Shown here in pieces: positions 19,207-37,419 of a stretch of 64,000 nt of DNA. The stretch spans positions 6,855-70,854 of the forward strand of contig JAHBWG010000047.1 in NCBI GenBank assembly GCA_019637095.1, read 5' to 3'. Both the position numbers and the translations under genes were made by a program. The DNA is from Sandaracinaceae bacterium. Lineage in GTDB: Bacteria > Myxococcota_A > Polyangia > Polyangiales > Sandaracinaceae. How positions within the stretch are numbered: position 1 is the first letter of the stretch; each line of letters begins with the position of its first letter. The notes beneath the pieces are model-generated. The model did no database searches and was not told where the DNA came from. It was given only the letters and a program-made list of their open reading frames with translations.

Positions 19207-19824
19207 TCACGCCGCGTCGGGCGGCAGACCGACGGCGCCGAGCGCCGCGCCCGCGAGGATCGCGGGCAGCTGCGGGTCGTCGAGCCGCTCGGGCGCGTGC
19301 CGCACGATCGCGTTCATCGACGCGCGCAGCCCGTGGAAGACCGCGAGCGCGAGCAGCTCGGGGTCGCGCTCGCCGAGCACCTCCGGGAAGGCGCGCAGGT
19401 AGCTCGCGGCGAGCGCGACGCCCTGCGCGAGCCCGGCGCGCACCTCGTCGGTCTCCTCCATGAAGGAGAGGATCTCCACGACGCTCGCGTAGAGCGCGCG
19501 ATCTTCGCGGTAGATGCGCACGATCTCCTCGGCCGCGACGCGCAAGACCGACGCGGGCGAGCCGCCCGCCGAGCGCGACAAGACCGCTTGCATCATCGCG
19601 ATGTCCTGCTCGAGGCGGCGCTCGAAGAACGCGGCGATGAGCGCGCGCTTGTCCGGGAAGTACTGGTAGAGCGAGCCGACGCTGACCCCGGCGCGCTCGG
19701 CGACGCGCGTGGTCGTCGTCTTGTCGAAGCCTTCGCGCTCGAACACCTGCCCCGTCGCCTCGACGATCGCGTCCACGGTCGCGCGCGAGCGCGCCTGCCG
19801 TGGCCTCTTCTTGTCGCGCGCCAT
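19207..19824 (-). CDS. TetR/AcrR family transcriptional regulator
   Basis: ATG at 19824 (MARDKKRPRQ...). HTH: TVDAIVEATGQVFEREGFDKTTTTRVAERAGVSVGSLYQYFPDKRAL. Only the C-terminal 205 codons of track ORF 19207..20280 are plausible. Confidence 0.88.
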   Translation of the reverse strand: MARDKKRPRQARSRATVDAIVEATGQVFEREGFDKTTTTRVAERAGVSVGSLYQYFPDKRALIAAFFERRLEQDIAMMQAVLSRSAGGSPASVLRVAAEEIVRIYREDRALYASVVEILSFMEETDEVRAGLAQGVALAASYLRAFPEVLGERDPELLALAVFHGLRASMNAIVRHAPERLDDPQLPAILAGAALGAVGLPPDAA

Positions 19825-26074: not shown

Positions 26075-26722
26075 TCAGAAGGCGCGGATGCCTTGCAGGT
26101 TGAAGTCGAGGATCACCTCGGCGAGGTGATCGAGGTCGAGCTCCTCGTCGGGCGTGCTGACGACGAGCGCGGCGAACTGCTTGACCGAGCCGAGGATCAG
26201 CCACGCCGTCAGGTCGGTGTCGATCGCGCGGATCAGCCCGATCCGCTGGCCGTTCGCGAGCGACTCGCTCAGCCAGCGGTGCAGGCGCCCGTAGAACGCG
26301 TCGAGCATCGCGTCGACCTCGCCGTCGAGCCCGATCGCTTCGCGCAGGATGAGCTTCGCGAGCGCGCGGTCCGAGCGGAAGACGGCGAACAGGCGGCGCA
26401 CGGTGGCGAGGAGCTGGTCGCGCACCGGCAGCGCGCCGGGCGTGAGATCGACGCCGCTGACGCTCTCGTCGAGGCGCGAGAGCACGTCCTCGAGCAGCTC
26501 GTGGAAGATCGCCGTCTTGGAGTCGAAGTAGAGGTAGAAGGTCCCGCGCGCGATCGAGGCCGCCTCGATGATGTCGGCGATGCGCGTCTGGTGGTAGCCG
26601 CGCTCGCTGAAGACGGCGAGCGCGACGTCGAGGATGTGCTGGCGGCGGCGCGCGCGCTTCTGCTTGGCGCGGACCGTCCGGCCGTCGGCGTCGTGGTCGG
26701 TGGCGTGCGCGTGCGGGCTCAT
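26075..26722 (-). CDS. TetR/AcrR family transcriptional regulator (last gene of lipid operon)
   Basis: ATG at 26722 (ATGA overlap with the PlsC stop). HTH: ILDVALAVFSERGYHQTRIADIIEAASIARGTFYLYFDSKTAIF. Confidence 0.88.
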   Translation of the reverse strand: MSPHAHATDHDADGRTVRAKQKRARRRQHILDVALAVFSERGYHQTRIADIIEAASIARGTFYLYFDSKTAIFHELLEDVLSRLDESVSGVDLTPGALPVRDQLLATVRRLFAVFRSDRALAKLILREAIGLDGEVDAMLDAFYGRLHRWLSESLANGQRIGLIRAIDTDLTAWLILGSVKQFAALVVSTPDEELDLDHLAEVILDFNLQGIRAF

Positions 26723-27645
26723 CGCTGCTCCTCCCTCGCCGCCCAGTAGGCGTCGACACGGCGCGCGACGGCGGCGCGTGCGCGCTCGGCGAGCGCGGGG
26801 ATCTCGTCGTCGGTGGCGCCCGCGGTCTCGATCGGCTCCTCGACCCACACGGTGAGCTCGTTGCCGGCGCGGATGATCGGGCTGCCCGGACGCATCAGGT
26901 CGAACGCGCCGGTCACCGCGACCGGCACGACCGGGACGCCGAGGTCGCGCGCGATGAAGAAGATACCGGTGCGGAAGGGCCGCACGCGGCCGGTCCGGGT
27001 GCGCGAGCCCTCGGGGAACGAGAGGATCGAGCGGCCCTCGGCGATCTCGCGGCCGATGCGCTCGGTGAGCTCGCTCGTCTGGCCGCGCTGGCCCTTCTTG
27101 ACCGGCACGGTGCCGCGCGCCTTCATGAACCAGCCGTAGAACGGGTAGCGGAAGTGGCTCTCGAGCTCGAGCCCCTGCTTGAAGTGCGGCGTGGCGTTGT
27201 AGCAGAGGACGTGGTCGAAGTGGTTGGTGTGGTTCTGCGCGAAGACGTACTGCCGCGCGGGATCGACCTTGGGGTGCACCTCCGCGCGCCAGCGCGAGCC
27301 AGTCAATGCGATTTGCACCTTGCAGTAGAGGCGGCCCGCCCAGTCGATCCTGTGCGAGGGGACGAGCTGGTAGACGACGGTGAGGCCGCCCAGCGCCGGG
27401 ATGAGCCAGCCCAGGCCGGCCGCCCACAGCGCGGCCGAGGTGACCTTGTCGAGCGCGCTCGCGGGCTCGAAGGAGCGCGCGGGGACGGGGGCCTCGTCTG
27501 CGTCGGTCGCGATCGCCTCGGGCGCGATCGCGTCGGGCGCGGCAGCGGCGCGGGGCGGTTCGGGCGCGACGGCCGGATCGGCCGCGGCGGGTGCGTCTGG
27601 CGCGCGGCGCGGCTCGGGCTCGTGCGCGAGGATCTCGGCTCTCAT
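26719..27645 (-). CDS. lysophospholipid / 1-acyl-sn-glycerol-3-phosphate acyltransferase (PlsC family)
   Basis: ATG at 27645. HX4D motif (NHTNHFD) and FPEGSRTRTG motif. N-terminal Ala/Pro-rich region plus a TM helix. Confidence 0.88.
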   Translation of the reverse strand: MRAEILAHEPEPRRAPDAPAAADPAVAPEPPRAAAAPDAIAPEAIATDADEAPVPARSFEPASALDKVTSAALWAAGLGWLIPALGGLTVVYQLVPSHRIDWAGRLYCKVQIALTGSRWRAEVHPKVDPARQYVFAQNHTNHFDHVLCYNATPHFKQGLELESHFRYPFYGWFMKARGTVPVKKGQRGQTSELTERIGREIAEGRSILSFPEGSRTRTGRVRPFRTGIFFIARDLGVPVVPVAVTGAFDLMRPGSPIIRAGNELTVWVEEPIETAGATDDEIPALAERARAAVARRVDAYWAAREEQR

Positions 27646-28550
27646 GCGACCACCTCCAGCGCGCCGGGGAGCACCTCGAGCCGCGTGAGCGCGAGCGCGA
27701 GCACCTCTCCGTCCACCATCACGTCCACCGGGCCGGTCAGGTCGAGCTCGACCGTGCGGGCGCGGGTCTCTTCCACCTTCGGGTGCTCGACGTGCTTGCC
27801 CGCGAAGATGCTCGGGAAGCTCCGCACGAACGGCAGGCGCGGCATCGCGCTGATGCGGATCACGTCGAGCGCGCCGTCCGTCGGGTCGGCGTGCGGCGCC
27901 ATCATCATCGTGCCGCCGGTGAAGCGGCTGTTCGAGAACGAGAGCAGCACGCAGGCGCGCGCGTCGGTCGCGCCGCCATCGACGCGGATGGGGAACGAGG
28001 GCTGCGCGAGGCGCGCCGCGGTGATGAACACCGAGACGACGTAGCCCGCCGCGCCGAGCCGCTTGAACCGCCGGTTCGTGAGCGCGCCGACGTCCGCGGA
28101 GAAGCCGAGGCTCAGGATGTTGATGTAGTGGATCGCGCCGCCCGCGTGCTCGGCGCGCACGACGTCGCACAGGTGCGTCTCGCCCGCGAGGATGGCGCGC
28201 AGCGCGGCGTCCGCGTCGGTGATCGCGAAGTCGCGCAGGAACGAGTTGCCCGTGCCGAGCGGGAGCATCGCGAGCGTCGGCGTCGGCGCGCCGGCGTCGC
28301 GCGGGAAGAGGCCGTTGACGATCTCGTAGCTCGTCCCGTCGCCGCCGACGGCGAGGAAGCGGCGGCGGCCCTGCGCGGCCTCCTGTCGCACGCGCTCGGT
28401 GCCCTCGCCGGCGCGCGTCGTGGTGAAGACGTCGATCGGCATGCCGCCGCCGGTCAAGCGCGCGAGCGCGCTCGCCGCGCGCTTGCCGCACCGGCCCCCG
28501 CCCGCGGCGGGGTTCACGACGGCGAGCCAGCGATCGGCGGCGTCCGTCAC
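27642..28550 (-). CDS. diacylglycerol-kinase-family lipid kinase (YegS/BmrU-like)
   Basis: GTG at 28550 (GTGA overlap with the ligase stop). FLAVGGDGTSYEIVNG and LPLGTGNSF motifs. Confidence 0.85.
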   Translation of the reverse strand: MTDAADRWLAVVNPAAGGGRCGKRAASALARLTGGGMPIDVFTTTRAGEGTERVRQEAAQGRRRFLAVGGDGTSYEIVNGLFPRDAGAPTPTLAMLPLGTGNSFLRDFAITDADAALRAILAGETHLCDVVRAEHAGGAIHYINILSLGFSADVGALTNRRFKRLGAAGYVVSVFITAARLAQPSFPIRVDGGATDARACVLLSFSNSRFTGGTMMMAPHADPTDGALDVIRISAMPRLPFVRSFPSIFAGKHVEHPKVEETRARTVELDLTGPVDVMVDGEVLALALTRLEVLPGALEVVA

Positions 28551-30250
28551 AGCGCCACCAGCTCCCGCTCGCCCGCGTCGCGCAGCGCCTCCGCGAGGGC
28601 GTCGCGCTTGATCTTCATCGACGCGGTGCGCGGGAACGACTCGCTCCAGAAGAGCACCGCGCCCACGCGCTTGTGATCGGGCAGGCGCCGGTTGTGCGCG
28701 CGCAGCTGCGCGAGCACCGCGTCGCGCGAAGGCCGCGCGCCGTTCTCGCGCTTGGGCCGCACGATCGCCACGAGCCGCTCGTGCGTCAGGCCGCGCGGCC
28801 ACAGGTAGCCGGACGCGAACACCACGAGCTCCTCGACGTCGAGCGCGTCGAACGCGCCCTCGACGTCCTCGGGGTAGACGTTCTTGCCGCCGGACGTGAC
28901 GATCATGTTCTTGCGGCGGCCGACGAGGTGCAGGTGGTGCGCCGCGTCGATCCAGCCGAGGTCGCCCGTGCGCAGCCAGCCGTCGGCGGTGATCGTCTCC
29001 TTCGTGAGCTCGGGCTCGTCGAGGTAGCCCTTCATCAGCGTGCGGCCGCGGATCCACACCTCGCCCACGCCGTCGGCGCCGGGCGCGTGGATCTTCACCT
29101 CGACGCCGTCGAGCGGGCGGCCGACCGAGTCGCCGCGGAACGGGCGCAGATCGTTCACCGTCGCGACGGTGCACGCCTCGGTGAGGCCGTAGCCGATCAC
29201 GACGGGCAGGCCCATCCGGTAGAAGAGCTCGGCGCGCGCGCGGTCGACGAACGCGCCGCCGCAGAAGAGCACCTCGAGCTCGCCGCCGAACGCCTCGTGG
29301 ATCGGCGCGAGCAGCGCGCGGCTCACCTCGGGGCGCGGCGCCGCCGCCGTGAGCAGCTCGTTGAGCCCGCCGAGCACGGAGAACATCCGGCGCGCCCAGC
29401 GCGGGCGCTCGGCCAGCGAGTCGCGGATCGCGGCCTCGAAGCCCTCGAGGATCAACGGGACGAGCGCCATGTGCGTGACGCCGTACGCCTGCATCGTCGG
29501 CTGCAACAGCTCGGGGCGCAGGGTGCGCTGGTGGATCACGCAGGCGCCCGCGCTGAACGGGCCGACGAAGCCGACCATGAAGTCGATCGCGTGGTTGGTG
29601 GGCAGGATCGAGAGCACGCGGTGTCCCGAGCGCATCGGGAAGCGCGCCATGAGGCCGCGGAGCTGCTCGAGGTAGGCGTCGTGCGTGAGCATGCAGCCCT
29701 TGGCGACGCCGCCGGTGCCCGAGGAGTAGACGATGGTCGCGACGTCCTCTCGCGCGCGCGGCTCGAGCGCGGGCGCCTCCGCGCCTTCGGGGGGTAGCGC
29801 GTCCCAGTCCTCTTCCACGTCGAAGACGAGCGGGACGCTCGGGCGCGCCTCGAGCCGCTCGAAGCGACGCAAGAGGCCTTGCTCGCTCACGAGCGCCTTG
29901 GGCTGCGCGTGCGCGAGCAGGCGCGCCTGCTCTTCGGCGCTCAGCTTGTAGTCGAGCGGCACGAGCACCGCGCCGCGCCGGAACGCCGCGGCGGCGACGG
30001 TGAGCCAGCGGCTCTGGTTGCCGAGCAGCATCGCGACGCGGTCGCCCGGCCCGACGCCGTGGTCGGCGAGCAAGCGCGCGACGCGCAGGACCTCGCGCCG
30101 CGCCTCGAGGTAGGTGAGCCGCCGCGTCTCCTTCTTGCGGTCCACCTCGATCAGCGCGGTCTCGGTCTTGAAGGTGAGGAGCGCGTCCTCGAGCAGCTCG
30201 CCGAGCGAGGCGTAGCGCGTGGGGTCGAGCATCTCGGCAGCGACGGTCAT
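28547..30250 (-). CDS. AMP-dependent acyl ligase (long-chain fatty acid-CoA/AMP ligase family)
   Basis: AMP-binding motif IVYSSGTGGVAKG. Also GYGLTE, RTGDLG and a C-terminal SMKIKR, typical of ANL adenylating enzymes. Confidence 0.9.
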   Translation of the reverse strand: MTVAAEMLDPTRYASLGELLEDALLTFKTETALIEVDRKKETRRLTYLEARREVLRVARLLADHGVGPGDRVAMLLGNQSRWLTVAAAAFRRGAVLVPLDYKLSAEEQARLLAHAQPKALVSEQGLLRRFERLEARPSVPLVFDVEEDWDALPPEGAEAPALEPRAREDVATIVYSSGTGGVAKGCMLTHDAYLEQLRGLMARFPMRSGHRVLSILPTNHAIDFMVGFVGPFSAGACVIHQRTLRPELLQPTMQAYGVTHMALVPLILEGFEAAIRDSLAERPRWARRMFSVLGGLNELLTAAAPRPEVSRALLAPIHEAFGGELEVLFCGGAFVDRARAELFYRMGLPVVIGYGLTEACTVATVNDLRPFRGDSVGRPLDGVEVKIHAPGADGVGEVWIRGRTLMKGYLDEPELTKETITADGWLRTGDLGWIDAAHHLHLVGRRKNMIVTSGGKNVYPEDVEGAFDALDVEELVVFASGYLWPRGLTHERLVAIVRPKRENGARPSRDAVLAQLRAHNRRLPDHKRVGAVLFWSESFPRTASMKIKRDALAEALRDAGERELVAL

Positions 30251-30273
30251 GGGCTCTCGTTCCTGGGCGCGCC

Positions 30274-30519
30274 TCAGAGGCGGCTCGCGACGACCTCGGC
30301 GAGCTCTGCGAACGTCCGCACGTCCTGGACCTCGTAGTCCGGGATCTCGACCTCGAACGTCTCCTCGAGCGCGGTCAGCAGGCTCAGCGCCTGCATCGAG
30401 TCGATCTCGAGCGCGTCGAAGAGATCGTCCTCGGGCGCGAGGGCCTCGCGCGCCTTGCCGAAGCGCTCGGCGGCGAGCGCGAGCAGGCGGTCGAGCACGG
30501 CGTCGGCGCGCGCGCTCAC
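30274..30519 (-). CDS. acyl carrier protein
   Basis: 81 codons from GTG 30519 (GTGA overlap with the crotonase stop). Phosphopantetheine-site context LFDALEIDSMQALSLLTALEE. Confidence 0.8.
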   Translation of the reverse strand: MSARADAVLDRLLALAAERFGKAREALAPEDDLFDALEIDSMQALSLLTALEETFEVEIPDYEVQDVRTFAELAEVVASRL

Positions 30520-31460
30520 GAGACCCCTCGCGGCGCGGGGCGCGCGTCCTTCGGCGGCAGGTACGGCATGGCGTCTTCGGCCTCCACGAACCGGGTCAGC
30601 GCCTCGACCACCGCGGGGCGGCCGAGCAGCTCCACGAAGCGATCCTTCTCCTCGCGCAGGCGCGCGCGCGGGATCGGCTTCGCGAACGCCTTGGCGACCG
30701 CGAGCGTGTGCGGGTCCAAGCGCGTGGTCTGCTCGGCGAGGCGGCGCGCCACGTCTGGGGCGCGGCCCTCGGCGACGAGCTGCGCGACGAGGCCGAGCTC
30801 GTGCGCGCGCTTCGCGCTCAGGCTCCGCCCGCTGAACAAGAGATCGCGCGCGACGGAGTTGCCGAGGTCGCGCTCGAGCCGCGGGATCCCGCCGAAGCCC
30901 GGGATGAGCCCGAGGCGCAGCTCGGGGAACGCGAAGCGCGCCGTCTTGTCGGCGACGATCACGTCGCACGCGAGCGCGAGCTCGAAGCCGCCGCCGAAGC
31001 AGACCCCGTGCACCGCCGCGATCGTCGGCACGGGCGCCGCGTCGATCGCGTCGAACGCCGCGTGGACCCGATCGAGGAACGCGCGCACGCCCCACGCCTT
31101 CGCGGCGCGGAGCGGGTGCGGGTCGCGCCGTCGCAGCGCGGCGCGCAGCGTCGAGGCGCCGGCGCGCGCGGCGGTGCGCGGGGTGTCGAAGAGCGCGCGC
31201 GCGTGCGCGCCGAGGGCCTCGGGCGCGCCGTCCACGCTCGTCAGCCCGGCGTGGAGCTCGCGCAGGTCCGCGCCCGCGGAGAAGCCGCCCGGCTTGGCGG
31301 ACGCGATGACCAACGCGCGCACGTCGGGGCGCGACAAGAGCGGCACCACGCCCTCGAGCGCGCACAGCATCGGCAGGCCGATCTCGTTGAGGCGGCCGCC
31401 GTCCAGGGTGACGGTCAGGATGCCGCCCTCGATCGCGTGGGTCAGGTGCATCGGTCGCAT
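30516..31460 (-). CDS. enoyl-CoA hydratase/isomerase (crotonase) family protein
   Basis: Crotonase fold signature VIASAKPGGFSAGADLRELH. Second oxyanion region AAVHGVCFGGGFELALACD. Confidence 0.88.
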   Translation of the reverse strand: MRPMHLTHAIEGGILTVTLDGGRLNEIGLPMLCALEGVVPLLSRPDVRALVIASAKPGGFSAGADLRELHAGLTSVDGAPEALGAHARALFDTPRTAARAGASTLRAALRRRDPHPLRAAKAWGVRAFLDRVHAAFDAIDAAPVPTIAAVHGVCFGGGFELALACDVIVADKTARFAFPELRLGLIPGFGGIPRLERDLGNSVARDLLFSGRSLSAKRAHELGLVAQLVAEGRAPDVARRLAEQTTRLDPHTLAVAKAFAKPIPRARLREEKDRFVELLGRPAVVEALTRFVEAEDAMPYLPPKDARPAPRGVS

Positions 31461-31464
31461 CGCG

Positions 31465-32949
31465 TCAGCGGTAGCTCGCGACGAGCGGCGCGGTCGTCGG
31501 GCCGAGCGGCGGCAGGTAGGCGAACGGATCGTCGGGGCGCGCGGGGAACGGGAAGTCCGGGTGGAACCCGCGCACGTGGCGCTCGAGGATCTGCCCCATC
31601 CTGCCCATGCGCTCGAGGTTCGAGACGACCGAGCGGCCGATCCCGTCCTTCACCGCGTCGGCCTCGTCCGTCGCGCGCAGCATCGCCTCGAGGAGGTGCT
31701 CGTCGAGGTGCTCGTCGTCGACCGTCAGCGCGAGCTCCGGCTGGCCGCGGTCGTCCATGAGGTTCTTGATGCGCTCGTCCATCGTCACGCCGACGGAGGG
31801 CACGAGCCCGGGCATCGAGCAGACGAGCGCGTGGTAGCGCGAGCTGACGACGAGCGCAGCGCGCCGCAGGAGCGCGACCATCTCGTACATCTCGACCTCG
31901 TCCGAGACGAAGCGCGGGAGGCCGCCGCCGAGCTCCTCGTCGAGGCGCTCGACCGCGCCGCGATCGAGCTGCTCCATCCCGACGAGGATCGGGAACCAGC
32001 CCGGCCGCGCGCGCAGGAAGTCCTTCAGCGCGCCGGCCATCGAGCGCAGGTACCGATCGAGCGCGCGGTCCACGTCCGGCCCGTGCTTGTGGAAGTAGAC
32101 GCTCTTGTAGTGCGCGTCGGCCCAGCCGCCGGTGACCGAATGGACGGCGGCCTTGAGCGGCTCGGGCTTCACCGGCCACCAGAACGGGTGGATCGGGCAG
32201 AACGCCACGATGGGCTGCGCGCCGTCCCAGCCCGCGCGCTCGAGCAGGCGCTCGGCGCGCTCGCGCGGCGCGGGCTCGAACGTCCACGCGGTGTCGGTGC
32301 CCGGCGCGGTCGGCACGCCGAGCCGATCGAGGATCGCGCGGCTCTCCTCGTTGCGCGCGATGACGAGCGCCTTGTCACAGTGCTTCTCGACGAGGCGGCG
32401 GAGCGACTCGTCCATCGAGCCCGCCTCGCCGCCGTACCCGACCGCGATCTTGTCCTCGGCGGCGGCGAGCCCGAGCGCGCCGACCATCATGGTCGAGAGC
32501 GCGTTGGCGAACTTGCTCTTGAACATCGATCCTTCGCACGCGATGACGCCGTGGTGCGTGCGGACCGTGTCGTAGAGGAACTTGTGGAAGATCTGCGGGA
32601 TGTGGAGCTGGCGCGCGGTGCGGAAGTAGCCGCGGGTGAGCGCCGGGTCGATCGTGCAGACGCTCAGCGCGAGGTGCTCGTCCCCGAAGACGTGGCGGAA
32701 CTGGCGGATCATCTCCTCGACGCGCACGTCCGCGCCGGTGTTGCGCGTGCCGACGTAGCCCGCGAGCAGGAGCTCGAGCGGCTGGCCGGGTCGCCACGGC
32801 GGCGCCGGATCGGTCTCGTGGCGCGTGCGCGCCGCCTCGATCAGCCCGCTCATCGAGAGCTGCACCATGCGGTCGGGGTCGACCGCGTCCTTGGCGAGGT
32901 CGAGCGCGCCCTTCGCGGCTCGCCCGATCAGACGCATCGTCAGGCTCAT
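31465..32949 (-). CDS. polysaccharide pyruvyl transferase family protein
   Basis: ATG at 32949 (ATGA overlap). GYVGTRNTGADVR near the N-terminus and the VVSSRYHALVCSMPGLVP motif, typical of PS_pyruv_trans proteins. Confidence 0.8.
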   Translation of the reverse strand: MSLTMRLIGRAAKGALDLAKDAVDPDRMVQLSMSGLIEAARTRHETDPAPPWRPGQPLELLLAGYVGTRNTGADVRVEEMIRQFRHVFGDEHLALSVCTIDPALTRGYFRTARQLHIPQIFHKFLYDTVRTHHGVIACEGSMFKSKFANALSTMMVGALGLAAAEDKIAVGYGGEAGSMDESLRRLVEKHCDKALVIARNEESRAILDRLGVPTAPGTDTAWTFEPAPRERAERLLERAGWDGAQPIVAFCPIHPFWWPVKPEPLKAAVHSVTGGWADAHYKSVYFHKHGPDVDRALDRYLRSMAGALKDFLRARPGWFPILVGMEQLDRGAVERLDEELGGGLPRFVSDEVEMYEMVALLRRAALVVSSRYHALVCSMPGLVPSVGVTMDERIKNLMDDRGQPELALTVDDEHLDEHLLEAMLRATDEADAVKDGIGRSVVSNLERMGRMGQILERHVRGFHPDFPFPARPDDPFAYLPPLGPTTAPLVASYR

Positions 32950-34103
32950 TCGGCGGCCCTCGGGGAGGTGGCGCGCGCGGCGGCCCGCGGCGCCGGCGTC
33001 GGCGTGTACGGGTACTCGAAGCGCGCGGACTTGGCCCAGCGGTAGAGCGCGAGGCCGTACTCGGTGAACGGCGTCGGCCCGCGGCCGAGCTCGGTCGTGA
33101 CGCGCGTGTTGTCGAACACCACGTCGTTCGAGAAGTAGGGCAAGAAGACCTTCATCAGCGAGGCGGCCAGCGAGACCATCCCGCGCGGCGCCCCGGCGAG
33201 CTGCCCCGAGAGCGCGAGGGCCGGCGAGTTGAGCCCTGGCACGAAGAACGGCGTGCGGATCCCCGCGGCCTGGAACACCTGCTCGTGCTCGCGCGCCGTC
33301 TTGCTGCCCTCGCCCGCGCTCAGGTGGTAGCAGTCCCAGCGCAGCGTCGGCTTGGTGAACAGCTCGGCGATCGCGGAGCCGACGAAGTCGGCGGGCACGA
33401 AGTCGAGGCGGGTGTCGGGGTGGATCGGCACCGCCGGCGCGTCGACCATCCACGTGTAGAAGCGGACCATGTCGAACTGCGTCGTCTCGGGCCGCCGGCT
33501 GTCGCCCATCACCGTCGGCGGCCGCAGGATCACGATCGGCAGGTCGCCGACGAGCTCGCGGATCATGTGCTCGGCGAACTTCTTGGTGCGCGCGTAGGGG
33601 TCGTAGTCCGACAGGTCCCAGTCGATCGACTCGGCCTCGGTGACCGTCTGGTGCTCGCGCGTGCCGCTGACCGCCGTCGTCGAGACGTAGCCGAAGCGGC
33701 GCAGGCCGCCGCGCGCCTCGGCGAGCTCGCGCACGAGCTTGATCACGGAGAGCGTGCCGCGCAGGTTCGCGTTGAAGCAGGCCTTGTCGCTCTTGCGGTT
33801 GAGGCTCGCCGCGACGTGCAGGACCGAGTCGCACTCGCGCGCGAGCTCGCCGCGCACGCGCTCCGAGAGGCCGAGCCCCGGCGCGCCGAGGTCGCCCTCG
33901 ACGAGCACGAGCTTGGGGAGCTCGGCGTAGAAGCGCTCCGCGTCCCAGTGGAGCTGCATCGCGCGCCAGAGCTTGTCGACGCCGCCGCGCTCGCCGCCGC
34001 GGCTCATCAGGTAGATCTTGTCGAACGCGCCGCGCTCGCAGAGATCGGCGACGACGTACGAGCCGAGGTAGCCGGTCCCGCCGGTGAGGAACGCCGCGCT
34101 CAC
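32946..34103 (-). CDS. NAD-dependent acyl/thioester reductase-like SDR (NAD_binding_4 type)
   Basis: GTG at 34103 (GTGA overlap). Rossmann FLTGGTGYLGSYV, catalytic YARTK, and VSTTAV as in thioester-reductase domains. Confidence 0.85.
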   Translation of the reverse strand: MSAAFLTGGTGYLGSYVVADLCERGAFDKIYLMSRGGERGGVDKLWRAMQLHWDAERFYAELPKLVLVEGDLGAPGLGLSERVRGELARECDSVLHVAASLNRKSDKACFNANLRGTLSVIKLVRELAEARGGLRRFGYVSTTAVSGTREHQTVTEAESIDWDLSDYDPYARTKKFAEHMIRELVGDLPIVILRPPTVMGDSRRPETTQFDMVRFYTWMVDAPAVPIHPDTRLDFVPADFVGSAIAELFTKPTLRWDCYHLSAGEGSKTAREHEQVFQAAGIRTPFFVPGLNSPALALSGQLAGAPRGMVSLAASLMKVFLPYFSNDVVFDNTRVTTELGRGPTPFTEYGLALYRWAKSARFEYPYTPTPAPRAAARATSPRAAE

Positions 34104-35761
34104 TCCGCGCCTCCGAGGTCCGAGGGCGCGTGCTCCGCGCTGCCATGCGCCGCCGCGCGCGGCAGGAGCGCCGCGGCCACGCTCGGCGGATCGCCGCCGA
34201 GATCGACCGGCTCGTCCTCGGGCGCGTCCTTGCCGCGCAGGAGCGGCAGGGACCACTTGTCGAGGCCGGGGATCTCCACGTCCATCCAGTACGTGCGCCA
34301 GCAGAGCGTCTCGAGGTCCCAGCCGAGCGCGGCGCGCTCGCTCGCGTCGAGCGCGGCGGTGCGGTCGCGGACGGCGCGCGTCGAGAAGCGGTAGTCGTGG
34401 TCGTGGATGAAGGGCTGGTAGCTCTTCCAGAGCGCCTCGATCGACTCGAGGAGCCGCGACGTCTTGTTGAGCTTCAGGCTCGTCTCCTGCGCGCGCGCGT
34501 GCCAGCGCTCGCGGTCGCGCGCCGGCACGCTCTCGGGCAGGTGCTTGTTGCCATCGAACCGGCGCAGCGTGTCGCGCAGCCAGCGCGTCGCCTTCGCCGC
34601 GGCGGGCAGGAGCACGCTCTGGTCCGCGCCCTGCTCGAGCGCGGTCGAGTCGAGGTGCGTGAGCAGCGCGCGCTCGAGCGCGTTGACCCCGCTCGGCGTG
34701 TAGCCGCGCCGGACCTTGAGCGCGGTCAGATCGAGCGCGCGATCGAAGGTGAAGCGGTTGTCGTCGCCCGAGGCGAGCTGCCAGATCGGCGCCGCGCGAT
34801 CCGCGAGCGCGTCGCCGACGGCCAGCGTCATCCCGCGCGCGACGGTGTCCACCGGCACGACGTCGAACGTGTTGTCCGCGCGCATCGGGACCTTCCACGC
34901 GTAGCCGCGGCACATCCAGACGATCGGGCCGCTCGTGTTGAGCCCCTCGTTCCAGCCGGGGAACGGGAAGCTGCGCGCGCACTCGACGATCGAGGGCCGG
35001 ATCAGCGTGAGGCGCACGTCCTCGCGCCGCGCGAGCGCGTGCTCGGCGAGGCCCTTGCTGAAGGTGTAGAGGTTCGGCCAGCCCAGCGCCTGCGCGCGCT
35101 TGGTGCCGAGCTCGACGCGCCCGCGCCGCGCCGCCGAGCGCTTGCCGCCGCCCTCGCGCTCGTCGATCGCCGCGCACGCGGAGCGCACGGCGAGCATCTC
35201 CGCGTCGACGTCGAAGCGCGTCCCGTTCGGCGAGACGCCCTCGGTGAGCGTCTCGGCGACCGCGCCGTCCGTCTCGCCCGCGACGAAGCAGGTGCTCACG
35301 TGGATCAGCCGCTTGTCGGGCGTGCGCGCCGCGACGTCGGCGGCGTGCAGCGCGCCGAGCACGTTCACGTCGAGCGCCTGGATCGGGTCGGGAGAGAAGT
35401 CCGTGATCCCGGCGCAGTGGACCACCGCGTCGATCTGCGGCGCGAGCTGCGCGAGCACGGCCGGCTCGACGCCGAAGAGCGGGTCGCGCGCGTCGCCCTC
35501 GAGCACCTCGATCTTGTCGCGCACGAGCTCGAGCAGGCGCGCGCCGTGGCGCTCGCGCAGGGGCCGCAGCGCCGGCGAGCGCTCGAAGATGGCGCGCACG
35601 CGCGCCGCCGCCGTCTCGCCGCGCCGCGGCCGCACGAGCAGCGTGATCTTGCCGACGTCGGGCACGCGCTCGAGCAGGAACGCGACCCAGACCTTGCCGA
35701 GGAACCCGGTGAAGCCGGTCACAAGCAGGTGCCGGCCTTCGTACGCTTCGCGGATCGTCAT
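34100..35761 (-). CDS. fatty acyl-CoA/ACP reductase (NAD_binding_4 plus C-terminal FAR-type domain)
   Basis: ATG at 35761 (ATGA overlap). LVTGFTGFLGKVW, HVSTCFVAG, YTFSK. Long C-terminal helical domain. Confidence 0.85.
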   Translation of the reverse strand: MTIREAYEGRHLLVTGFTGFLGKVWVAFLLERVPDVGKITLLVRPRRGETAAARVRAIFERSPALRPLRERHGARLLELVRDKIEVLEGDARDPLFGVEPAVLAQLAPQIDAVVHCAGITDFSPDPIQALDVNVLGALHAADVAARTPDKRLIHVSTCFVAGETDGAVAETLTEGVSPNGTRFDVDAEMLAVRSACAAIDEREGGGKRSAARRGRVELGTKRAQALGWPNLYTFSKGLAEHALARREDVRLTLIRPSIVECARSFPFPGWNEGLNTSGPIVWMCRGYAWKVPMRADNTFDVVPVDTVARGMTLAVGDALADRAAPIWQLASGDDNRFTFDRALDLTALKVRRGYTPSGVNALERALLTHLDSTALEQGADQSVLLPAAAKATRWLRDTLRRFDGNKHLPESVPARDRERWHARAQETSLKLNKTSRLLESIEALWKSYQPFIHDHDYRFSTRAVRDRTAALDASERAALGWDLETLCWRTYWMDVEIPGLDKWSLPLLRGKDAPEDEPVDLGGDPPSVAAALLPRAAAHGSAEHAPSDLGGAE

Positions 35762-36423
35762 CCCACCACCGGCCAGTCGAGCTCGCGCGCCATGCGCCGG
35801 AGCGCCGGCTCCGGCGTGACCGCGCAGGGCAGGGCCACCGCGCCCAGCAGCGGGGAGTCGCTCTGGTGCGAGCCGTAGGCGCACGCCGTGCGCAGCTCGA
35901 GGTCGTGCTCGCTCAGGCGCGCGGCGAGCACCGGGCCGCCGAGGCTAGGCCCGAGGACCGGCGCCCGGAGCTTGCCCGTCGCGCGGCCCGCCGCGTCGAG
36001 CTCCATGACGTTGGCGATCACCACGTCGATCCCGAGGTGCCGCGCCACGGGCCGCGCGATCACGTCGAGGTTGTCGGAGAGCAGGACCAGGCGGTGCCCG
36101 GCGGCGCGGCAGCGCTCCACGAGCTCGACGCCCACCTCCGAGAGCGCGCCCACGAGGTGCTCCTCGGCGTACAGCTCCCCGAGCACGAGGAGCCGGTCCT
36201 CGCTCATCCCCTCGAGCGCCGACCACGCGAGCTCGCCCGCGCGCGCGGCCGCGCCGCCCGCCGCGAGCGGACCCGCGAGCGCGAAGCTCGAGAGCCCCAG
36301 CAGCCGCGCGCGGACGCGCCGCGCGTTGAGCGCGAGCCACGCCGCCGCCGTGAGGGTGGGGCGGGGGCTCAGCGTGCCCTCGAGCCGGAAGAGCGCCGCG
36401 CGATGATCCGTCGTGTGATCCAA
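35758..36423 (-). CDS. HAD-IB-like protein with degenerate catalytic motif (first gene of lipid operon)
   Basis: HAD-IB layout (LVLLSDNLDVIARPVARHLGID..., AYGSHQSDSPLL). Motif I reads FRLEGTL instead of FDxDGTL, so the Asp nucleophile is absent. Confidence 0.78.
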   Translation of the reverse strand: MDHTTDHRAALFRLEGTLSPRPTLTAAAWLALNARRVRARLLGLSSFALAGPLAAGGAAARAGELAWSALEGMSEDRLLVLGELYAEEHLVGALSEVGVELVERCRAAGHRLVLLSDNLDVIARPVARHLGIDVVIANVMELDAAGRATGKLRAPVLGPSLGGPVLAARLSEHDLELRTACAYGSHQSDSPLLGAVALPCAVTPEPALRRMARELDWPVVG

Positions 36424-36461: not shown

Positions 36462-36475
36462 ACTGACGTGTCAGT
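36462..36475. promoter_or_regulatory. 14-bp perfect palindrome upstream of the lipid operon (candidate TetR operator)
   Basis: ACTGACGTGTCAGT lies about 40 bp 5' of the HAD-like gene start codon (36423). It sits in the only AT-richer stretch of the 96-bp intergenic region (TTAGACTGACGTGTCAGTTCTTTTT). Confidence 0.3.
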
Positions 36476-36519: not shown

Positions 36520-37104
36520 TCAGCGCCGGATCACGACGCGGCCGCCTCGCGCGTCGCGCCGGTCGTCGCGGCGCGCGTCCCGCATGTCGCGGCGCATGTC
36601 CCGGCGATCCCGGCGGTCGTCGCGGCGCTCCTGCCGGATCTCGCGTCGGACCTCGCGGTGCTCGCGGCGCAGGTCGCGCCGGTCGACGACGCGGACCGGC
36701 GGCCCGGGCGCGACGGGGGCGACGTACGCGCGCGGGGCGCGGCGGCCGCGCGGGAACCGATCGATGACCACGGTCCGCCGATCCGGGCGGGCGTAGCCGC
36801 CGTCGTAGTAGACCCAGCGGCCGTTCTCCTGCACCCAGCGGGGCGCGACGACGACGTAGCCGGGCCGCTCCTCGATCCAGTAGCCCTCGACCCACGTCCA
36901 GCGGTTGCGGCGTCGATCCCAATCCCAGTAGCCGTCGACCCAGGTGTAGTTGGCCGCGGGCGGGGCCGGGCGCTGCACGACGACGCGCGGCCGCGGCGGC
37001 GCCGGGGCGGTCGGGGGGACGATGGTGACGGTGACCTGCGCGTCGGCTGCCGAAGGGAGCGCGAGCGCGACGAGCAGCGTCGCGGCGAGCAAGTGGGTTC
37101 GCAT
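36520..37104 (-). CDS. secreted YXWGXW/WxxGxW-repeat protein with Arg/Asp-rich tail
   Basis: ATG at 37104 gives the signal MRTHLLAATLLVALALPSAADAQ. Repeats: YTWVDGYWDWDRRRNRWTWVEGYWIEE...PRWVQENGRWVYYDGGY. C-terminal RRDLRREHREVRREIRQERRDDRRDRRDMRRDMRDARRDDRRD. Confidence 0.75.
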   Translation of the reverse strand: MRTHLLAATLLVALALPSAADAQVTVTIVPPTAPAPPRPRVVVQRPAPPAANYTWVDGYWDWDRRRNRWTWVEGYWIEERPGYVVVAPRWVQENGRWVYYDGGYARPDRRTVVIDRFPRGRRAPRAYVAPVAPGPPVRVVDRRDLRREHREVRREIRQERRDDRRDRRDMRRDMRDARRDDRRDARGGRVVIRR

Positions 37105-37419
37105 GATGGAAGCGTACCGCAATGCGCGTTCCGGTCGCGGCCCCTCGGCGCGACGCGGTTGGCACGGGGTGGGCGGGGGTGTGCCGCACACGTGCGCCGC
37201 GAACGCGGGTTCGCGGCGCCGTGACAGGTCGTCGCGCGCCGCGGCGGGCACGTCGCCTCGCAGCATCGCAACGAACGTTGTCGCCCGTCGCGTCCGCGGT
37301 CGCGGGCGCGAGAGAGGTCCGTCGTGGAGCGCGGCACGGGTGAGGGACGGGCGGCGGGGGCGATCGATTCACGGCCGGCGGGCTTCGAAAGCGCCGCGGG
37401 CTTGAGTAAGCTGCCTCGA

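Follow-up and report, generated by a model that had tools for sequence, protein, structure and literature searches.

What kind of lipid is made by an operon that carries the parts of the myxobacterial ether-lipid enzyme as separate genes? How the ether bond of alkyl lipids is formed in aerobic bacteria is unsettled even for the studied elb pathway (PMC9131029), and the question is raised again by ten consecutive genes at positions 26075-36423 (minus strand) in a 64-kb stretch of DNA from a Sandaracinaceae bacterium (GCA_019637095.1, contig JAHBWG010000047.1), which as a whole is called the window here. Our reading, to which we give a probability of about one half, is that this operon is a member of a widespread, uncharacterised family of lipid-biosynthesis operons related to the myxobacterial elb genes, and that its product is most likely an analogue of phosphatidic acid derived from a fatty alcohol (alkyl or ether-type). 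The family keeps the ElbD and ElbB parts, has a module centred on a phosphoenolpyruvate (PEP) transferase in place of ElbC, and occupies Myxococcota lineages without ElbC.

Operon structure and relation to the elb genes

The G+C content of the window is about 74% and plain lists of open reading frames (ORFs) were noisy, so the genes were resolved by analysis of third-position G+C (GC3) in the reading frames. Together with Pfam, this gave the ten genes below, in the order of transcription.

35758-36423, minus strand: HAD-like protein (HAD-IB-like, ElbB homologue), 221 aa, TTG start; PF12710, E 1e-20
34100-35761, minus strand: FAR-type fatty acyl reductase, 553 aa; NAD_binding_4, E 1e-49, and a weak Sterile match
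32946-34103, minus strand: second reductase, a stand-alone thioester-reductase-type short-chain dehydrogenase/reductase, 385 aa; NAD_binding_4, E 2e-38
31465-32949, minus strand: pyruvyl-transferase-family GT-B enzyme (the transferase), 494 aa; PS_pyruv_trans, PF04230
30516-31460, minus strand: crotonase-fold enoyl-thioester hydratase (the crotonase), 314 aa; ECH_1, E 1e-35
30274-30519, minus strand: dedicated acyl carrier protein (ACP), 81 aa; PP-binding, E 1e-13
28547-30250, minus strand: acyl-AMP/acyl-CoA ligase, ElbD-A-like, 567 aa; AMP-binding, E 5e-67
27642-28550, minus strand: YegS/BmrU-family lipid kinase, 302 aa; DAGK_cat and YegS_C
26719-27645, minus strand: PlsC/AGPAT-type acyltransferase, 308 aa; PF01553, E 4e-22
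26075-26722, minus strand: TetR-family regulator, the last gene of the operon, 215 aa; TetR_N, E 1e-16

A ten-gene minus-strand operon with these domains had been claimed in an earlier note made from the bare sequence, and both the GC3 frames and Pfam bore it out. The junctions also read exactly as that note had them: the nine junctions comprise seven overlaps of 4 nt each (four ATGA and three GTGA) and two gaps, one of 4 nt between the transferase and crotonase genes (31461-31464) and one of 23 nt between the ACP and ligase genes. This count depends on the choice of start codons, and with the public gene call for the transferase, which starts 12 nt later and gives 490 aa, one overlap would become a short gap.

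The ether-lipid operon elbA-E of Myxococcus xanthus (MIBiG BGC0000871; Lorenzen et al. 2014 as reviewed in PMC9131029) encodes two proteins of the NAD-dependent epimerase family (elbA and elbE), a HAD-like protein (elbB), a protein with no assigned function (elbC) and the multidomain enzyme ElbD with the domains FAR-ACS-ACP-AGPAT (PMC9131029). The earlier note had given a ligase, an ACP, a reductase and an AGPAT-type acyltransferase as the domains of ElbD, and the published description, the reference locus used here (Anaeromyxobacter sp. Fw109-5, L081; pairwise blastp) and the Pfam domains of relatives all showed the architecture FAR-ligase-ACP-AGPAT. The only longer relatives of the window's FAR were proteins of 1400-1600 aa with the ElbD domain string in Pfam. 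In the window the four ElbD-type domains are four separate genes, whose products match successive parts of ElbD: FAR matches residues 27-583 (36% identity), the ligase 594-1144 (33%), the ACP 1171-1238 (41%) and PlsC 1301-1467 (27%). The HAD-like protein, whose relation to elb was overlooked in the first reading, is a homologue of ElbB (35%), and the second reductase matched ElbA/ElbE weakly (27-29% over part of its length). No elb counterpart of the transferase, the crotonase, the kinase or the TetR protein was found in the pairwise comparison with L081. ElbC belongs to the Lar_N (LarA-like) proteins in L081; the operon contains no counterpart of it, and the ElbC query used found none in the window's genome. 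No second FAR or ElbD was found in that genome (9.25 Mb, 197 contigs, 96% complete), which also gave no junction-spanning ElbD match at E 1e-70, and the FAR of the operon is its sole copy.

The proposal that the operon is an unfused ElbD or elb system was therefore sustained in part. Each domain matches its own ElbD segment (27-41% identity), but ElbC is missing, four genes have no elb counterpart and the ElbB-like protein lacks the catalytic Asp (see below). The comparison of the gene cluster with the elb locus, which the earlier note had proposed, thus recovered the ElbD domains and ElbB, and what it describes is a different variant, not the canonical elb cluster.

Conservation of the operon and its distribution relative to ElbC

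The closest proteins to those of the window came from metagenome-assembled genomes (MAGs) of Sandaracinaceae. Among public sequencing runs, near-identical DNA was present in metagenomes of sludge, wastewater and soil, and no RNA run was listed with it. Relatives of the transferase-like protein number in the thousands (50-85% identity). The same gene order was found in more than 40 fetched loci across several phyla, from Polyangiales, Nannocystales (including Nannocystis exedens DSM 71 and Paraliomyxa miuraensis), Bradymonadia, Terriglobia and one Ca. Xenobia MAG, and Sandaracinus amylolyticus carries an 11-gene version. Such recurrence of gene order is far beyond chance. When all flanking ORFs were clustered across the loci, no recurrent accessory gene appeared and no exporter or tailoring gene was among them; since no other gene family is recurrently linked to it, the operon is a self-contained unit. 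In one locus (L028:8328-11422) FAR is followed directly by the transferase, and the gene for the second (thioester) reductase is absent. In a few genomes (L014, L021, L040 and L044) the transferase gene is separated from the rest of the operon, and its neighbours there are unrelated (FG-GAP proteins, peptidase M49, phosphofructokinase) and give no functional hint. No description of this gene combination, nor of a link between ether lipids and pyruvyl transfer, was found in the searchable literature, which likewise yielded no ether-lipid data for Sandaracinus or Nannocystis. Work on sponge symbionts has described elb-like clusters with a split ElbD and neighbouring kinases, not this gene set.

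Our results revealed a complementary distribution of the transferase and ElbC. Among 401 sampled Myxococcota genomes the transferase was present in 49 and ElbC in 121, and only two genomes (G072 and G232, from one genus of family f37) had both, versus about 15 expected under independence. The same was observed for families: about 13 contained the transferase and about 19 contained ElbC, with one containing both. For example, the window's own family had the transferase in 2/2 genomes and ElbC in 0/2, and family f13 in 4/4 and 0/4, whereas the numbers for families f2 and f20 were 0/29 versus 24/29 and 0/34 versus 33/34, respectively. A 400-residue segment spanning an ElbD domain junction matched 36 genomes, all of them ElbC-positive, at E 1e-70, a threshold too strict for counting elb carriers. 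Furthermore, according to a published survey Polyangiia do not conserve the canonical elb cluster and Sandaracinus amylolyticus lacks it (PMC12224551). In Myxococcota the module built around the transferase appears to stand in for the elb operon with ElbC. The pattern only suggests a functional replacement, because related genomes are not independent samples.

The pyruvyl-transferase-family enzyme

The transferase is the sole PF04230 member in the genome. It matched PF04230 with 30.3 bits (cut-off 25.3), and the equivalog models of CsaB and WcaK matched it below their cut-offs. Its AlphaFold2 model (predicted local distance difference test, pLDDT, 91; predicted template modelling score, pTM, 0.88) has a two-domain GT-B fold, aligning about 330 residues to GT-B enzymes with a VIA Z of about 22 and a root-mean-square deviation of 3.4-4. 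When a profile of the transferase family was searched against PDB sequences, no match appeared at E up to 1. Pvg1p (5ax7) was not among the top 50 structural matches listed, and we draw no statement on Pvg1p from this. Comparison with E. coli WcaK by hhalign gave a probability of 93% over 316 columns.

R199, R371-Y-H373 and R393 are invariant in the transferase orthologs and align with an Arg, an R-L-H and a Lys of WcaK. The PEP-site residues of CsaB are R148, R306, H308 and K328 (PMC10435577), and from that study we infer that R199, R371, H373 and R393 are their equivalents. The transferase likely uses PEP, because these PEP-binding residues are conserved. The only lipid chemistry shown for the family is that of DxpH, which forms a PEP-derived ketal on the 1,3-diol of dedioxanopeptin and so generates a 1,3-dioxane ketal (PMC12964715).

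The HAD-like protein and the fatty acyl reductase

Motif I of the HAD-like protein is FRLEGT (F-R-x-E-G in all orthologs), compared with FDVDGT in ElbB. R13 and E15 do not vary among about 58 orthologs, and the D-x-D nucleophile of HAD-IB phosphatases is absent. The protein is not a canonical phosphatase, since the Asp nucleophile is lost. FAR carries the motifs GFTGFLG and YTFSK, and its Y232 and K236 are invariant in the orthologs. Its match to the Sterile (FAR_C) model PF03015 was weak (E 0.0017; 18.9 bits versus a cut-off of 35.4), and the Sandaracinus ortholog carries a recorded Sterile hit.

The two proteins are encoded by adjacent separate genes in Myxococcota and are fused in frame in 21 Terriglobia-type loci. 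The loci recorded with a single HAD-like/FAR ORF were as follows.

L035, L043, L045-L047, L055-L058, L063-L065, L068-L072, L078: HAD-like/FAR in one ORF; Terriglobia-type, without a TetR gene and without an upstream TGAC-N2-GTCA

A complex of the HAD-like protein with FAR was predicted with an ipSAE interface score of 0.72 (0.71-0.73 in three runs), the best of three controls reaching 0.00. In calibration, 58 of 80 solved complexes and 2 of 110 mismatched pairs reached this value, counts that hold only roughly here because our own alignments were supplied for both proteins. The runs agreed in at least 96% of the contacts, with a pLDDT of at least 84 for the partner, and the predicted interface includes invariant residues of both sides (D76, R77 and L81 of the HAD-like protein; L345 and R351 of FAR). 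The complex model supports binding of the HAD-like protein to FAR, the binding itself being predicted only. We read the HAD-like protein as a putative non-catalytic or re-purposed subunit of the reductase.

The remaining enzymes and the loss of a second ligase

As judged from the alignments, the catalytic motifs are intact in every enzyme except the HAD-like protein; those of FAR, the second reductase, the crotonase, the ACP, the ligase, the kinase and PlsC are invariant across 38-66 orthologs. The second reductase has the motif GGTGYLG, with Y170 and K174 invariant in 63 orthologs, and it matched the thioester reductase domain TIGR01746 (E 1e-32) below the cut-off. Both catalytic glutamates of the crotonase (E160 and E180) are present and invariant in 63 orthologs; the serine of the DSM motif of the ACP (S41), the TGD motif of the ligase and the GGDG motif of the kinase are invariant as well. 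The kinase exceeded the cut-off of TIGR00147 (136.1 versus 118.65 bits). In PlsC, HTNHFD (HX4D) and PEGSRT (PEG) are conserved in 38 orthologs, and the protein weakly matched the model of Aas-type acyl-ACP:phospholipid acyltransferases. Residues 1-60 of PlsC form a Pro/Ala/Glu-rich N-terminal tail that is not conserved, the matches of its relatives starting at residues 54-100; a single hydrophobic segment follows the tail (window near residue 73).

In most relatives of the operon the transferase and crotonase genes flank a gene for a second AMP-binding ligase (e.g., L007:11737-13191, and L085:10551-12209 in Sandaracinus amylolyticus), and among themselves these second ligases share 46-60% identity. 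No ortholog of them was found anywhere in the window's genome, where the best match was 28-30%. The retained ligase, which adjoins the ACP, is the one closer to the A domains of ElbD (33-36% identity; median 241 bits versus about 150-165 bits for the second ligase). The second ligase is judged to have been lost in the lineage of the window.

Regulation of the operon

One candidate operator for the TetR protein was found in front of the operon.

36464-36473, minus strand: candidate TetR operator TGACACGTCA, core TGAC-N2-GTCA, about 45 nt upstream of the first start codon

The full inverted repeat, ACTGAC-N2-GTCAGT at 36462-36475, consists of two 6-bp arms separated by 2 bp; as the two bases in the centre are not self-complementary, it falls short of a perfect 14-bp palindrome. 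The core TGAC-N2-GTCA occurs once in the window. Among related loci, 16 of the 19 with a TetR gene have it no more than 200 nt upstream of the first gene, versus none of the 16 without one, the background being 0.006 per 210 nt. This covariation of operator and TetR gene is a strong footprint for autoregulation at the candidate site. The best NCBIfam match of the TetR protein was the acyl-CoA-sensing, Bacillus-type fatty-acid regulator FadR (E 2e-17), below the cut-off. Simple scans for sigma-70 promoters and for terminators gave nothing useful.

The neighbours of the operon in the window (Lon, a CAP-domain protein and others) are unrelated to it. The gene directly upstream (36520-37122, minus strand) had no Pfam match; a Trp-rich repeat and a charged tail were seen in its product in the first reading. 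A second TetR-family gene (19207-19824, minus strand) lies in a separate operon, described in the same reading as LolA-like/FtsX/ABC.

Proposed pathway and alternative explanations

The earlier note suggested that the operon activates an acid on the ACP, reduces it and builds an unusual glycerolipid, which remains plausible, and we agree with its statement that the product cannot be predicted from sequence. In the scheme that makes the most economical use of all parts, the ligase would load an acid onto the dedicated ACP, and FAR in complex with the catalytically dead HAD-like subunit would reduce an activated fatty acid to a fatty alcohol. The transferase would attach a PEP-derived three-carbon unit to a hydroxyl of a lipid intermediate, and the crotonase and the second (thioester) reductase, together with the ligase and ACP, would process a carrier-bound intermediate. 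The kinase could then phosphorylate the resulting alcohol, as mammalian alkylglycerol kinase does, and PlsC would acylate it, leading into ordinary phospholipid synthesis. The terminal TetR protein would keep the operon repressed from the TGAC-N2-GTCA site as long as no lipid ligand is bound. The product would probably be a fatty-alcohol-derived, phosphatidic-acid-like lipid of the ether type.

Several points weigh against this reading. The products and activities of all family members are deduced from sequence, and the part given to the crotonase is guesswork. A scheme that calls for two dedicated ligases would have to borrow a housekeeping ligase here, because no ortholog of the second ligase of most relatives was found in the genome. 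The ketal that DxpH forms on a 1,3-diol, the only lipid chemistry shown for the transferase family, is not an ether (PMC12964715). A PEP route would put the alkyl chain on C2 of the three-carbon unit, whereas the known myxobacterial ether lipids are 1-O-alkyl (PMC9131029). Finally, a complementary distribution in related genomes is no independent evidence of equivalent function.

The precedent of DxpH leads to the first alternative, a pyruvyl-ketal lipid. The crotonase, with both of its hydratase glutamates, would provide a 3-hydroxyacyl thioester, which FAR would reduce to a 1,3-alkanediol; the transferase, with its conserved PEP-site residues, would close a pyruvate ketal (a 1,3-dioxane carboxylate) of the kind that DxpH makes on a lipid 1,3-diol with PEP (PMC12964715), and the carboxylate would be activated, reduced and phosphorylated. 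We consider this product unlikely. Ketal formation would leave no free hydroxyl for the conserved PlsC, and the conserved pair of kinase and PlsC is explained less well than by a glycerol-like acceptor. The operon also has no enoyl-forming dehydrogenase, and the homology to ElbB and ElbD points to ether-lipid chemistry.

About as improbable as the ketal is a lipid of signalling or secondary metabolism that is made in small amounts (for example, a fatty-alcohol phosphate or an acylated alkanediol) rather than a bulk membrane lipid. Control by a TetR repressor suggests conditional expression, the elb products of M. xanthus include the developmental signal TG-1 (PMC9131029), and sets of ligase, ACP and reductase are typical of clusters resembling those of non-ribosomal peptide synthetases. 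However, no exporter or tailoring genes are recurrently linked to the operon, and the terminal kinase and PlsC look like an entry into phospholipid synthesis.

The ether-type reading could also be given a specific form, which we regard as slightly more doubtful than either of these alternatives. In aerobic bacteria without ElbC, the three-carbon backbone of ether lipids would come from PEP: the transferase would form an alkyl enolpyruvyl ether from a fatty alcohol, the ligase and ACP would activate its carboxylate, the crotonase would hydrate the alkoxy-acrylyl thioester, the thioester reductase would yield an alkylglycerol, and the kinase and PlsC would convert it to an ether phosphatidic acid. 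The lipids expected from this route, which is without precedent, are 2-O-alkyl. If true, it would make ether lipids using neither dihydroxyacetone phosphate (DHAP)/AGPS nor PlsAR.

Least probable of all is salvage or remodelling, in which the ligase, ACP and PlsC would re-esterify exogenous (e.g., prey-derived) fatty acids, the kinase would recycle diacylglycerol or monoacylglycerol and the reductases and transferase would form a side branch: the weak Aas-type match of PlsC, the resemblance of the TetR protein to FadR and the predatory habit of many carriers among the Myxococcota speak for it, but it leaves the two best-conserved genes (transferase and FAR) and the crotonase without a role and sits poorly with the retention of the whole set as one unit from Myxococcota to Terriglobia and with a distribution complementary to elb.

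Two other lipid classes were ruled out: sphingolipid synthesis, as no serine palmitoyltransferase lies in or near the operon, and wax-ester synthesis, as no WS/DGAT does.

Implications

The operon family offers a second, genetically separable system for attacking the ether-bond step, and it is relevant to where the bacterial alkyl lipids of soils and sludge come from. A direct test is feasible because cultured carriers exist (Sandaracinus amylolyticus, Nannocystis exedens and Paraliomyxa miuraensis). The two genomes with both systems, G072 and G232, would be natural test cases for redundancy of the transferase module and ElbC. The new points of this work are the complementarity with ElbC, the covariation of operator and TetR gene, the predicted complex of FAR with the HAD-like protein and the loss of the second ligase.

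Comparison with known systems

The late steps proposed here resemble those of mammalian ether-lipid synthesis, where alkylglycerol kinase (EC 2.7.1.93) is combined with AGPAT: a kinase followed by an acyltransferase would give an alkyl-acyl phosphatidic acid analogue. The analogy is one of reaction order only, and the bacterial kinase belongs to the YegS/BmrU family.

Like the ketal-pyruvyl transferases of PF04230 (CsaB, Pvg1p, WcaK and DxpH), the transferase has a hidden Markov model match above the cut-off, a GT-B fold and the PEP-binding Arg, Arg-x-His and Lys/Arg, and DxpH of the dioxanopeptin pathway demonstrates that the family can act on lipid hydroxyls. Unlike them, it is about 100 residues longer, has two N-terminal helices and is encoded in a lipid operon without any sugar-handling gene.

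The closest known system is elb of M. xanthus. ElbB and each of the four ElbD domains have homologues in the operon, both systems have an additional NAD-binding reductase and tightly coupled genes, and both occur in Myxococcota and Acidobacteriota. They differ in that the domains are encoded by separate genes in the operon family, where ElbC is absent and a PEP-transferase-family enzyme, a crotonase, a lipid kinase and a TetR regulator are present instead; the ElbB-like protein has R-x-E where ElbB has D-x-D, and in the sampled genomes the two systems almost never occur together.

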